Below are positions 1-54,321 of a stretch of DNA of 54,321 nt, piece after piece (positions within the stretch are counted from its first letter, which is position 1; each line of letters starts with the position of its first letter). This DNA comes from a virus. Both the position numbers and the translations under genes were made by a program. The notes under the pieces are model-generated. The model was given only the letters and a program-made list of their open reading frames with translations. It was not told where the DNA came from and did no database searches. The stretch lies in UHGV virus genome UHGV-0135730. One strand, given 5' to 3'.

Positions 1-361
1 CGTCATTGAGTAGTTTTAATAAGGTTGATGTTTTGAAGTTGGTTGCGCCTACGTTATAGGCGAAGGAATAAAGTGCAGCGCGGGTAAAATCTGATATTTC
101 GACTTTGATATATGGGTCAATCGCTTTTGCGGTTTTGTGCAGATCTTTATTCAATAAAGCATCGCATTCTGATTGCGTGTAAGTCTTACCAAGCATGATG
201 TCTTTTCCGGTGTGACCGTAGCAAACAGTCCATACACCTACAACATCACGATAGGGATCGTGTTCCACGCCCTCTAATGGCTTAATCATCACCGCCGCAA
301 TAGCGATCGCCCCACCAGCCGCCGCCGCAATAATCTTATTCTTCAGCGATTGGCTAATCAT
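1..361 (-). CDS. SAR endolysin (lysozyme), N-terminal segment; continues at 54191-54321
   Basis: ATG at 361; [24 protein letters not shown] signal-anchor then lysozyme-like core ([20 protein letters not shown]); frame continues into window end, resembles P21-type SAR endolysin. Confidence 0.8.
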
Positions 362-362
362 G

Positions 363-563
363 TTACTTATTCCCCATTCGCGCGTCGTGTTCCTCTTGCG
401 CTCGCTTGTTCTCCTGTGATTTAAAGTAATAGTTAACGGCAAATGTGCCTATGGTTGATAAGATACCCACAAAGACGGCAATGTCATTGATGGTTATCGC
501 GCCGAAAAAAGCAGTTACGGCCCCGGTCACATACGCACACGCCTCCCGTATTCTGTCGAACAT
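363..563 (-). CDS. Holin, pinholin-like (class II)
   Basis: 66 aa from MFDR with two hydrophobic helices and charged C-terminus; RBS GGAGG; directly upstream of endolysin. ORF-track N-terminal extension rejected. Confidence 0.65.
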
Positions 564-577
564 AGATTTTCCTCCAA

Positions 578-606
578 CAAAGCAAAAACCCGGCGCGGGG
601 GCCGGG
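578..606 (-). terminator. Rho-independent terminator upstream of holin (tR'-like)
   Basis: Hairpin CCCGGC-GCGGGG-GCCGGG followed on minus strand by TTTTTGCTTTG; 15 nt upstream of holin RBS. Confidence 0.6.
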
Positions 607-634
607 TAGTTACAGTTTCGCATTGTTAGGTAAT

Positions 635-663
635 ATTTTAATCTGTTTGTTTTCGACCCACAA
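635..663 (-). promoter_or_regulatory. Candidate late promoter (PR'-like) upstream of tR'-like terminator
   Basis: TTGTGG-17-TAAAAT on minus strand; weak -35; position inferred by analogy with lambda PR'/tR'. Confidence 0.25.
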
Positions 664-671
664 ATACGGCT

Positions 672-848
672 TTACGCAGTTCTGTATATCAGTCCGTTAT
701 CAAGCAATGTTTGCATGTGTTCGCGATCCATGTCGCTTAATTCCCAATAAGGAACATCTTCATTCCTTATCATCACCTCTTCGCCTCTTACCAAATAGGC
801 GATGTCAAATACCTTATGCAAATAGATGCCATCTTCGATCTCGTTCAT
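672..848 (-). CDS. Hypothetical small protein (58 aa), paralog of 845-1027
   Basis: MNEIEDGIYLHKVFDIAYLVRGEEV...; ATGA overlap with upstream gene; shares IEDG-Y...V.GE pattern with neighbour. Confidence 0.5.
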   Translation of the reverse strand: MNEIEDGIYLHKVFDIAYLVRGEEVMIRNEDVPYWELSDMDREHMQTLLDNGLIYRTA

Positions 849-1027
849 AGGTCGCTAACCTTTACCAGTTCACCAGCATCAAGAAATATTTTAATTGTTT
901 CTCGCGTCGTCTTAATGATTGGCGCTACCCACTCGCCACCGCCAACGCAGATACGAATATCATCGCCTTCTACGCGGTAAAACAGCCTGTCGACTACTGT
1001 TGCTGCGTACACGCCATCTTCAATCAT
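845..1027 (-). CDS. Hypothetical small protein (60 aa), paralog of 672-848
   Basis: Start at internal ATG with AAGGAG RBS; MIEDGVYAATVVDRLFYRVEGDD... Confidence 0.5.
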   Translation of the reverse strand: MIEDGVYAATVVDRLFYRVEGDDIRICVGGGEWVAPIIKTTRETIKIFLDAGELVKVSDL

Positions 1028-1223
1028 TTTTGCGCTCCTTAATGGCTCGCATGATGTTAATACGCATAGCGTCACTGAATGCGTATATCGTAATGAAAGG
1101 CCAGAAGACTAGCTCGAACCAAATAATGCCGTCACTATCAACAGCTTTCTGAAAAGCGCCCATTAAAATGACGCCAGCCAGGTAAATGATAACCGCCGCA
1201 ATAATAAGGCATTCAATCATCAT
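1020..1223 (-). CDS. Hypothetical membrane protein (two predicted TM helices)
   Basis: Hydrophobic segments IIAAVIIYLAGVILMGAF and FELVFWPFITIYAF; start codon uncertain (several ATGs). Confidence 0.45.
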   Translation of the reverse strand: MMIECLIIAAVIIYLAGVILMGAFQKAVDSDGIIWFELVFWPFITIYAFSDAMRINIMRAIKERKND

Positions 1224-1470
1224 CGTCATCGTCCTCATGTTCAGCCAGGAACTCATCAACCACTCTGTAAGTCACTGGCGGGATGTATTCGAAATCATCA
1301 GAATCAAGATCAAGCGTCCGGCTGTCGCCGTCATCGTCCAGCGTATTCATCCCTAATTCACCGAAAGGGCCGTACCCAATGTGGCCCAGGTATTCGCATC
1401 CAGTCGTAAAGCCAGGGTATTCGCCTTTGCACCTGATCTTGTACAGCTTACTTGATGCGCTCAATTTCAA
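1213..1470 (-). CDS. Hypothetical acidic protein
   Basis: 85 aa ORF with poly-Asp N-terminus; operon orientation. Confidence 0.4.
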   Translation of the reverse strand: MKLSASSKLYKIRCKGEYPGFTTGCEYLGHIGYGPFGELGMNTLDDDGDSRTLDLDSDDFEYIPPVTYRVVDEFLAEHEDDDDDD

Positions 1471-52551: not shown

Positions 52552-52626
52552 TTAGCTTTCAATGAATATCATGATCGCCAGCCATACAGCGACGCAGGCA
52601 GAAAGGATAATGAGCGGGTCAATCAT
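52552..52626 (-). CDS. Small hydrophobic peptide 8 (24 aa)
   Basis: MIDPLIILSACVAVWLAIMIFIES; RBS GGGGTGG. Confidence 0.5.
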   Translation of the reverse strand: MIDPLIILSACVAVWLAIMIFIES

Positions 52627-52639
52627 CTTGCCACCCCAT

Positions 52640-52735
52640 CTAATACTTGCTCTTTACGGTTATCAGTACAGCAATAACAAAACTCACCAGAAATACAGAA
52701 ACGCCGATTAATCCGGCGATGATATAATCGTCCAT
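52640..52735 (-). CDS. Small hydrophobic peptide 9 (31 aa)
   Basis: MDDYIIAGLIGVSVFLVSFVIAVLITVKSKY; RBS GGTGA. Confidence 0.5.
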   Translation of the reverse strand: MDDYIIAGLIGVSVFLVSFVIAVLITVKSKY

Positions 52736-52739
52736 AACA

Positions 52740-52808
52740 TTATTCACCGACCAGTAATATTACAGCGGCAGCCATTCCGATAAATAAACCTAACAGAAAA
52801 GTAACCAT
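52740..52808 (-). CDS. Small hydrophobic peptide 10 (22 aa)
   Basis: MVTFLLGLFIGMAAAVILLVGE; RBS GGGGGTGA; starts 2 nt after stop of HExxH gene. Confidence 0.5.
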   Translation of the reverse strand: MVTFLLGLFIGMAAAVILLVGE

Positions 52809-52810
52809 AA

Positions 52811-53395
52811 TCACCCCCGTTTAAAGCTCATCACACGCGGCACAAGCGCTTCTTTTGCTTTAGGCTTACGTTTGCCTTTCTTAGCTGGTTTTTTCTCTTC
52901 TTTCGGCTCCTCTGCCTGTTCAACTGCCTGTTCTGCTGCATCAGTCGCCTTTTCCGCCTGGTCTAATGCCTTCTCTACGACTTCAGCGGCCTGCATAGCT
53001 GCCAACTGTGCTTCGTTTGACTCATCCAGGATCGGGAAGAATGCGTCAAAGATGCGGCCCACCATGTAAGCATATGTCTCGTTTGCCGGATGAGTTGGAT
53101 CAGTGGTCGCAACGACGCCTACATCACTTAAAACATGGAATGTAGTGTGGGCGCATTCATGGACCAGCGTACCAAGCTCATTATCGAATACTGCGATCAC
53201 GTAGAAGTTACCGCCTTTCTCGCCAGTGCAAGTAAGCGTCAATCCTCCTGCCAGTTCAAAATCAGGTTCGATTGGGATCCCTGCCTTTTCGCAAAATTCA
53301 TAGAACATGTCGCGAGTCGGGCAGAAGAAAACTGTTGTATGCTCAAAGAGCGGGACTTTGAATTGAGGCAACTTAATGCCTTTACCCTTAGCCAT
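52811..53395 (-). CDS. HExxH-motif protein (putative zinc metallopeptidase-like) with acidic/Lys-rich tail
   Basis: VHECAHTTFH motif; C-terminal low-complexity EQAEKATDAAEQAVEQAEEPKEEKKPAKKGKRKPK. Confidence 0.5.
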   Translation of the reverse strand: MAKGKGIKLPQFKVPLFEHTTVFFCPTRDMFYEFCEKAGIPIEPDFELAGGLTLTCTGEKGGNFYVIAVFDNELGTLVHECAHTTFHVLSDVGVVATTDPTHPANETYAYMVGRIFDAFFPILDESNEAQLAAMQAAEVVEKALDQAEKATDAAEQAVEQAEEPKEEKKPAKKGKRKPKAKEALVPRVMSFKRG

Positions 53396-53601
53396 CAGAA
53401 TATTCCTCTATCCTGAAAAATATAACCCCCGCAAAACTCGACACCGCAGGGAGTGAAAACAGCTATAAAACACTGAAAACGGCGCTTAGTGAGTACCGTT
53501 TGCAGAATTTTATAAAACTGGACCTGCTTAACATCTCTGATAAACAGATCCGGGCGCTCGTCCTACGCGTGGCAGGTGAGTAAATGGCGCTTTCTTCTAC
53601 C

Positions 53602-53619
53602 CAGGTAGCGCCCGACCTG
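53602..53619. other. Near-palindromic GC-rich element in 337-bp noncoding region (cos-like candidate)
   Basis: CAGGTAGCGCCCGACCTG with outer CAGGT/ACCTG symmetry; loosely resembles lambdoid cosN GGGCGGCGACCT. Confidence 0.2.
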
Positions 53620-53732
53620 TTAATGGGACTGTTGATCCGGTGTTGCGTGTTTTTGAATTTCCGCCGTCGCTCGCGGGAAGGATTGACCCGGTTATGGCTG
53701 GCTGGCGGAAACGGCGACACGCCCACGCGCTG

Positions 53733-54215
53733 CTATTCTTTGCGTAAGCACTGCGTTTTGATGTAGCCCTGAAGCGCGATTATCTTCGCATCTTTCTCTT
53801 TTAGTTGTTCTCTGAGGGATAGATAAGCCGATTCAGCGTCGGAAGTGAGTCGACAGGCGGCTCCATCAATGGCGCTGGCGGTTCCGGTGGGGTCGGACAC
53901 TCGCACAGGTGTTGCGTTGACGCGCAGCCTGATAGTCCCGTTATCAATGCCAGTGCGCAGATCGGCAATGTCAGATCTGATAGCTTTAATCTCATCGTGA
54001 TACCTCTTATCAAGTTTTGACAGTTCGGCGTTTCGCTCCTTCATCTGCTGAATGGTTTTACTTGCCGTTTTCAGCGCGCCCTTCGTTACCGTGACTTCTT
54101 CCTGCAACCTTGCCGCCTCACCCTGGTAATAACATGTTACGGCGGTTAGTCCGGCAATAATGCAAACAACAACGGCGATAATTAACGCCTTCACCTTGTC
54201 CACGTTTCCCCCCAT
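53733..54215 (-). CDS. Rz: Rz-like i-spanin
   Basis: N-terminal TM helix then coiled coil; C-terminus aligns with lambda Rz; overlaps endolysin 3' end. Confidence 0.8.
53801..53995 (-). CDS. Rz1: Rz1-like o-spanin lipoprotein embedded in Rz (+1 frame)
   Basis: [24 protein letters not shown] lipobox, Pro-rich mature region; entirely within Rz. Confidence 0.75.
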   Translation of the reverse strand: MRLKLSDLTLPICALALITGLSGCASTQHLCECPTPPEPPAPLMEPPVDSLPTLNRLIYPSENN

Positions 54216-54321
54216 TCGCAAACGGCATATTCAACATCGCGGCGGTTTACCAGGCCTTGCCACTTCTTACCGCCAGCGTATACCCAGCGTTTAAGCTGTG
54301 CGCACGCTTCTGATTTCTTGC
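54191..54321 (-). CDS. SAR endolysin, C-terminal segment (joins 1-361 across window boundary)
   Basis: Reverse strand reads ...[43 protein letters not shown]; codon GGC spans the junction; 164 codons in total. Confidence 0.8.

Follow-up and report, generated by a model that had tools for sequence, protein, structure and literature searches.

UHGV-0135730 is very probably a whole mEpimmI-group phage genome, assembled as a circle and opened arbitrarily within its endolysin gene

The virus genome UHGV-0135730 is a stretch of 54,321 nucleotides, analysed here in full and referred to as the window, and both of its ends lie inside the coding sequence of a phage endolysin. This raises the question of what the two ends are: the termini of a linear DNA molecule, the edges of a prophage cut from a chromosome, or a chance opening in a sequence that was assembled as a circle. 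The evidence strongly favors the last of these. We conclude that the window very probably represents the complete genome of a temperate mEpimmI-group siphophage, circularly assembled and opened arbitrarily in the endolysin gene. The gene is divided between the window ends in the following way.

1 to 361, minus strand: 5′ part of the endolysin gene, with codons 1-120 and the first base of codon 121; it encodes the signal-anchor-release (SAR) domain (residues ~10-26), E30, D39 and T45.

54191 to 54321, minus strand: 3′ part of the endolysin gene, from the last two bases of codon 121 to the stop; one 163-aa gene in the contig scaffold_82 described below.

A preliminary description of the window had stated that the open reading frame (ORF) with its start at 361 reaches the window edge one nucleotide into a codon, that the last bases of the window supply the two missing nucleotides in a frame ending at 54191, and that the joined product resembles P21-type SAR endolysins over its whole length. 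Each of these statements holds. The minus-strand ATG at 361 is followed by 120 codons and a single base (G, the complement of position 1) before the window edge; with the final two bases of the window added, codon 121 reads GGC, encoding Gly. The joined ORF is 492 nt long and encodes 163 aa, with the last base of its stop codon at 54191. The joined protein matches the Pfam family Phage_lysozyme (3.1e-45, residues 29-151), and residues 5-159 align with both R21 (PDB 3hde, 3.4e-63) and RrrD (PDB 4zpu, 3.2e-64), each time in a single stretch that runs unbroken through residue 121. The identity to R21 is 99 of 155 aligned positions (64%). In the PDB alignment, the catalytic residues E30, D39 and T45 align with E35, D44 and T50 of R21. 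A putative SAR segment at residues 10-26, in which 10 of 17 residues are Ala or Gly and which is preceded by K7 and K9, aligns with the SAR segment of R21. By its sequence, the joined protein is a GH24 lysozyme and an R21-type SAR endolysin. Its exact 163-aa sequence is also found in the deposit DAL60762.1 as ‘endolysin R21 like protein’ (Third Party Annotation assembly, Caudoviricetes sp.), and the same protein is called as an intact gene in scaffold_82 in ENA.

The continuity of the sequence across the join extends beyond this gene. The two ends of the window share no terminal repeat, and hence the join contains no duplicated bases. Seven phage records (91-94% identity) and 34 E. coli chromosomes each align without interruption to a 1097-nt stretch centered on the join, from which it follows that no bases are missing there either. 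An exact 40-mer over the join is found inside 6 IMG/VR contigs. With the start of the window, by contrast, IMG/VR yielded only a relative, so the window is not itself one of the IMG/VR contigs; JGI metagenome contigs gave no match to a segment of the attP arm. In the chromosome of E. coli WCHEC025970, the last and the first bases of the window correspond to the adjacent positions 2528599 and 2528600.

ENA records carrying the identical sequence were found through exact look-up of the neighboring proteins, and all of the stretches fetched were 100% identical to the window and free of gaps. Three contigs from these records are longer than the window by a short excess.

NODE_50_length_54376 (ERZ1745231): 54,376 bp, excess of 55; opens at window position 1, shares the coordinates of the window, and its last 55 nt equal window 1-55.

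RAMP15-1_SAMN03418259_METAG-scaffold_82 (ERZ28621273): 54,376 bp, excess of 55; opens at window position 20927.

k119_163713 (ERZ27296277): 54,440 bp, excess of 119; opens at window position 34767, and has a MEGAHIT-style name with k = 119.

One end of each contig was read, and the overlap with the opposite end was derived from the coordinates. Scaffold_82 runs through the join without a gap and matches the window at 100% identity for 20,471 nt, passing from window 9882 down to 1 and then from 54321 to 43733. The Logan contig SRR1930122_6014 is also 100% identical to the window, over 14.9 kb. Because the excess tracks the assembler k (55, 55 and 119) and the opening point differs each time, these overlaps point to a cyclic path in the de Bruijn graph; a terminal repeat of biological origin would show one length and one position, unlike the overlaps of the three assemblies. 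We propose that a de Bruijn-graph assembler circled the graph once and wrote the circle out as a linear contig, the starting base being arbitrary. The k-mer overlap would have been trimmed afterwards, and the opening would have fallen in codon 121 of R, the gene of the SAR endolysin, leaving the gene split between the window ends. As judged by comparison of the sequences, the window is NODE_50 minus its 55-nt overlap, and it was by chance that contig output placed the break in the endolysin gene.

The same contigs bear on the possibility that the virion DNA is linear and physically terminates at the window ends, either in cohesive (cos) ends or in fixed direct terminal repeats. Circle formation through ligation of cos ends is known from many temperate siphophages, lambda among them. 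However, the ends of the window fall within the endolysin coding sequence, the same sequence is opened at three different places in three assemblies, the overlaps equal the assembler k instead of one constant biological repeat, and the small terminase (TerS) is of the headful type of phage Sf6. Cos ends or fixed direct terminal repeats at the window ends were rejected on account of the differing opening points and the overlaps tracking k, and we consider physical ends at this place extremely improbable.

Several points weigh against the conclusion that the genome was assembled as a circle and that its packaging fits such a map. For NODE_50, the 3′ end alone was seen, and the repeat of its last 55 nt at the start of the contig is a matter of length and coordinate arithmetic. 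The three assemblies are 100% identical to one another; they are separate assemblies but perhaps not separate samples, and may derive from one read set. The circle rests on comparison of assemblies, with read coverage, terminal redundancy and pac-type ends outside this evidence. In addition, the large terminase (TerL) has no match among PDB sequences and no close characterized relative, and the TerS family is an imperfect predictor of the packaging mode. The claim of the preliminary description that the window is a closed circular genome is accordingly sustained for the assembly map, by three records with k-sized overlaps and three opening points, whereas the physical molecule in the virion is probably linear, as set out below.

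To which phage the circle belongs is indicated by its relatives and by its immunity repressor.

1 to 54321, no strand: complete genome copy of an mEp021-like temperate siphophage, the opening between 54321 and 1 being arbitrary.

15151 to 15798, minus strand: CI-type repressor of immunity group I (HTH_3 and Peptidase_S24, Pfam).

Between 84% and 98% of each 25-kb half of the window aligns, at 89-92% identity and in the same order, with mEp554, mEp010, mEp044, mEp021, mEp515 and mEp013. The Escherichia phage MagusPhagus is likewise colinear with the window, at about 90% identity. The genomes of these relatives are 52,961-54,655 bp in size, and the window is exactly one genome length. The repressor is identical to that of mEp021 (Rep021) at 189 of 198 positions (95%), and genes of the siphovirus-type tail (tape measure, tube and J) are present. 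On this sequence evidence, the window phage is a member of the published mEpimmI group. The mEpimmI phages have been described as distinct, Nus-dependent, non-lambdoid temperate siphophages that are common in the human gut (PMC11893012; Front Microbiol 2025).

The attachment site for integration (attP) lies intact in the interior of the window, beside int. The integrase region contains the following features.

23553 to 24767, minus strand: tyrosine integrase of mEpimmI type Ib with an arm-binding N-terminal domain (Pfam Phage_integrase and Arm-DNA-bind_3).

24784 to 24805, plus strand: left 22-nt direct repeat of the attP arms, TTTGGTCACGATTTGGTACACA, a putative binding site.

24815 to 24830, 24835 to 24850 and 24909 to 24924, plus strand: three 16-nt repeats of the GAACGGATATTAACAC type, between int and the core.

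24947 to 24955, plus strand: attP core CTGTCTGGA, 9 bp, the sole stretch common to attP, attL, attR and the rebuilt attB.

25025 to 25046, plus strand: right 22-nt direct repeat of the attP arms, 95% identical to the left copy.

The integrase is identical to mEp021 Int at 389 of 404 positions (96%), its gene has 97% nucleotide identity to int of the MIN12 prophage, and the exact protein is deposited as DAL60714.1. The core was defined by comparing attP of the window with the two sites, attL and attR, at the ends of the MIN12 prophage. Homology to integrated prophages ends at 24955, where the chromosome goes on into dgcM. Joining the host-derived portions of attL and attR gives a rebuilt attB, which is present uninterrupted in 5367 of 5426 E. 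coli genomes and lies within the 5′ end of dgcM. The attP is not tRNA-based, as no tRNA gene was detected by ARAGORN in the window. As the preliminary description had noted, the attP-like repeats lie beside int and not at the window ends; they consist of the 22-nt pair and the three 16-nt repeats, and the core is intact. From their sequence and position, the repeats are putative arm-type binding sites. A small helix-turn-helix gene adjoins int, and is a candidate for an excisionase.

The insertion of mEp021 into ydaM was verified by polymerase chain reaction (PCR), and the disruption of ydaM was noted (PMC11893012). In the same study, the mEpimmI integrases were divided into types I-IV with att sites in ydaM, abgT or mppA, and both MIN12 and mEp021 were assigned to type Ib (Table 2 of PMC11893012). 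In lysogens, the insertion is at about codons 15-17 of dgcM (ydaM), with the first ~16 codons at one prophage end and the remainder at the other. The dgcM remnant is a frameshifted pseudogene according to RefSeq. Following the Campbell model, the free genome with attP (POP′) beside int would integrate via CTGTCTGGA into the 5′ end of dgcM (ydaM). The resulting prophage map would be the window rotated to start at 24955, and the join of 54321 to 1 would then be interior.

Close relatives of the window phage are common as chromosomal prophages in E. coli, and the window could have been an integrated prophage cut from a chromosome, with the in-frame join of its ends a coincidence. Pieces of 25 kb from the window were matched against 5426 complete E. 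coli genomes; matches were found in 35, all of them as prophages, and none of the window segments is E. coli core DNA. Every protein scanned had either a phage-type assignment or no match. Furthermore, phage DNA flanks the attP core on both sides in the window, the homology to lysogens breaks exactly at 24955 into dgcM or ynaN/zntB, and the join restores an intact gene that is contiguous in more than 45 other records. An integrated prophage is refuted by the intact attP and the lack of host flanks, and we would assign it almost no probability. The apparent absence of host-derived sequence noted in the preliminary description is in agreement with this result, the matches in E. coli being to prophages only. 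The same description had proposed an excised or virion-derived genome. The intact attP and the lack of flanking host DNA support its non-integrated state, whereas virion DNA and a replicating or excised circle are indistinguishable by sequence.

Other arrangements would also give a circular map. A tandem double lysogen or a replication concatemer, as opposed to free unit circles or virions, also holds an attP junction and closes a graph cycle; by sequence alone, a head-to-tail repeat looks like a circle. Tandem polylysogeny is known for lambda-type integration. On the other hand, the attL and attR branches of a tandem lysogen would tend to break contigs at the 9-bp core, but the openings of the three assemblies, at 1, 20927 and 34767, all lie away from att. 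No contig joining the exact sequence to host DNA turned up in the protein look-ups. A tandem array as the source of the circle is therefore improbable, though less so than physical ends at the window ends or an integrated prophage. A phage-plasmid, in the form of a circular extrachromosomal prophage, would have a circular map as well, and a faint episomal attP band was obtained by PCR in an mEp021 lysogen (PMC11893012). However, the window encodes an integrase and a working-type attP, its Int being the close counterpart (96% identical) of that of the chromosomally inserting mEp021, and all 35 E. coli matches are chromosomal, with none on a plasmid. Among the proteins scanned, which did not include every ORF, no partition or plasmid-replication family was present. 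We regard a phage-plasmid as hardly credible, and retain the reading of the window as one circularly assembled genome of a temperate phage.

The physical form of the DNA in the virion is related to the packaging genes, which are located close to the join.

49913 to 51391, minus strand: large terminase TerL, 492 aa (Pfam Terminase_6C; PHROG 38, 2.6e-99).

51394 to 51879, minus strand: small terminase TerS of the Sf6 gp1 type (Pfam PF20901, 1.1e-36; PDB 3hef/4dyc, ~1e-27; PHROG 1482).

TerL is 98% identical to mEp021 TerL. Among the matches listed from beyond the group, its nearest named relatives, with 26-32% identity, include those of T1-like phages and mycobacteriophages. Sf6 packages its DNA by a headful mechanism, and the T1-like phages and mycobacteriophages are taken as headful packagers or as having circularly permuted genomes. 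By analogy, the Sf6-type TerS suggests headful (pac) packaging of the window phage, in which case the virion DNA would probably be linear, terminally redundant and circularly permuted. The circular map is compatible with such linear virion DNA because headful, permuted DNA also assembles as a circle. The reads closing the circle would most likely have come from virion or replicating DNA, with the headful step and the source of the reads both inferred; an identical assembly would be obtained from replicating circles or from excised genomes. An attP-spanning PCR product was obtained from CsCl-purified mEp021 virion DNA (PMC11893012), from which it follows that the virion ends are not fixed at att. 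Restriction fragment length polymorphism patterns have also been reported for the mEpimmI phages (PMC11893012), and headful packaging was not found stated for these phages in that paper. We lean slightly toward a broader proposal, that the window phage is a separate species-level mEpimmI lineage and that the whole group packages by the headful mechanism from near the Sf6-type terS. Group-wide headful packaging, if true, would explain the circular assembly as well as the arbitrary or att-based starts in the deposits.

The genes surrounding the join comprise a standard lysis cassette and the neighbors listed below.

5103 to 5831, minus strand: Q-like late antiterminator (Pfam Antiterm); the mEp021 counterpart is annotated as the late gene regulator Q.

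588 to 607, minus strand: putative terminator-like GC hairpin with a T run, directly upstream of the holin gene; TERM_5 of mEp021 is annotated at the matching place.

363 to 563, minus strand: holin, 66 aa, class II with two transmembrane domains, HP1 family (Pfam Phage_holin_2_3, 3.8e-14); annotated as holin in the relatives.

53733 to 54203, minus strand: Rz i-spanin, 156 aa (Pfam Phage_lysis, 1.9e-23), overlapping the 3′ end of the endolysin gene by 13 nt.

53801 to 53995, minus strand: Rz1 o-spanin, 64 aa, inside Rz in another frame, proline-rich and with the lipobox LSGC; assigned by sequence features only.

48465 to 49835, minus strand: portal protein (Pfam Phage_portal_3, PHROG 146); the mEp021 counterpart is annotated as portal.

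28693 to 34077, minus strand: central tail fiber J, 1794 aa (PHROG 31).

25104 to 28235, minus strand: side tail fiber with a C-terminal S74 chaperone-peptidase; the final gene of the late operon, abutting attP.

The stop codon of the holin gene is one base ahead of the endolysin ATG, and a GGAGG sequence is located 7 nt upstream of the holin ATG. The holin scores above the cut-offs for both the HP1 family (52.9 bits) and a superfamily II-like family; its score against the family of P21 holin S is 21.6 bits, below the Pfam cut-off of 26. The holin protein is very common, its exact sequence being encoded on large E. coli contigs. The exact Rz protein is present on four contigs. On the minus strand, the late genes follow the order of the Q-like gene, ~4.5 kb of small ORFs, the lysis cassette, the join, TerS, TerL, portal, head, tail, J and the side tail fiber. 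This order places the join of 54321 to 1 in the middle of the late gene cluster, and since the late genes lie downstream of the Q-like gene on the minus strand, late transcription from there would have to cross from 1 to 54321.

In lambda, Q adjoins the late promoter. Here, the ~4.5 kb at 623-5100 between the Q-like gene and the hairpin at 588-607 contain roughly 25 small minus-strand ORFs (40-120 aa), for which no Pfam hits were recorded, and the set of small ORFs varies among the relatives. The homologue of the portal gene (48465-49835) is labeled ‘anti-CBASS protein Acb1 family protein’ by RefSeq in many E. coli prophages, which is probably a naming artefact. The J gene has an internal direct repeat of ~375 nt with 77% identity, at 29818-30192 and 30604-30978. 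Within the tail operon there are islets of genes on the opposite strand, at 37954-38208, 36656-36904, 36299-36646 and 28413-28661 (all plus strand), whose products are a ParE-like toxin domain protein, a short fragment with a KilAC domain, an unknown protein and a PHROG ‘lipoprotein’; the gene of the last sits between J and the side tail fiber. No antitoxin partner for the ParE-like protein was identified among the proteins scanned.

Two further observations concern similarity to other sequences. The Logan contig ERR12249286_2 (98,488 bp) is 99.1% identical to window 30825-38206 but just 84-90% identical in the adjacent tail genes, and its tape measure gene is longer (1049 vs 782 aa). This shift in identity between neighboring tail regions indicates module exchange within the group. 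At 13881-13954, in the region of the ERF recombinase gene, there is a 74-nt match of 84-85% to the Bacteroides fragilis phages BF698P1 and BF698P3, which may be due to chance or to a conserved recombinase segment.

The phage group, its integration at dgcM (ydaM) and the R21-type lysis cassette have been published, and the exact sequence is already in public archives. The finding is an ordinary one, in that the window is to be treated as a complete, host-free genome with arbitrary coordinates, and no open question becomes testable through this genome. In practice, gene calling on the linear window truncates or misses the endolysin unless the sequence is rotated.

We have compared the window with the known systems that it resembles. 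The endolysin belongs to the common GH24 lysozyme fold family of R21 (3hde, 3hdf) and DLP12 RrrD (4zpu), with 64% identity over residues 5-159. It has in common with them the Ala/Gly-rich, weakly hydrophobic N-terminal segment, the spacing of the catalytic residues (Glu, 8 residues, Asp, 5 residues, Thr), and the genetic context, with a small two-transmembrane-domain holin before the endolysin and Rz/Rz1 after it. It differs from R21 in that the stretch separating the SAR segment from the catalytic Glu is shorter by six residues. The partner holin also differs from the P21 system, its best score being to the HP1 family and not to P21 S.

The TerS is homologous to Sf6 gp1 (3hef/4dyc, ~1e-27) over residues 17-145, and its gene is directly upstream of that of TerL. 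Unlike in the Sf6 module, the TerL of the window does not match a PDB sequence, and the rest of the virion module is of the siphovirus type. The integration system resembles that of lambda in its arm-binding tyrosine integrase, in the short core with repeated arms located by int, and in a prophage map that is the rotated map of the free genome. It differs from that of lambda in its 9-bp core, which lies within coding sequence, at the 5′ end of dgcM, so that the host gene is split by the insertion.

The closest resemblance is to the mEp021 group, which has the same gene order, lysis cassette, Sf6-type TerS and attP targeting dgcM (ydaM). Against every record of the phage collection searched, the identity of the window is below about 92%. 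Two HNH endonuclease genes of mEp021, mEp021_10 and mEp021_78, are absent from the window. The first lies between the helicase gene and the gene upstream of it (6080-6583 in the mEp021 genome), with an empty counterpart at window 19602; the second lies between the genes of tail assembly protein I and J (45958-46524 in the mEp021 genome), with an empty counterpart at window 34072-34087. With their clean flanks, these gaps look like presence or absence of homing-type insertions. The 1.5-kb gene of a zinc-ribbon protein in mEp021 takes the place where the window has a Bro-N/KilAC antirepressor, located in the replication module at 17671-18474 on the plus strand (Bro-N 1.4e-20 and KilAC 1.2e-10, Pfam; PHROG 130). 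The side tail fiber of mEp021 also differs from that of the window. Finally, in GenBank the sequences of mEp021, mEp515 and mEp554 start at the att core, whereas the window starts inside R.

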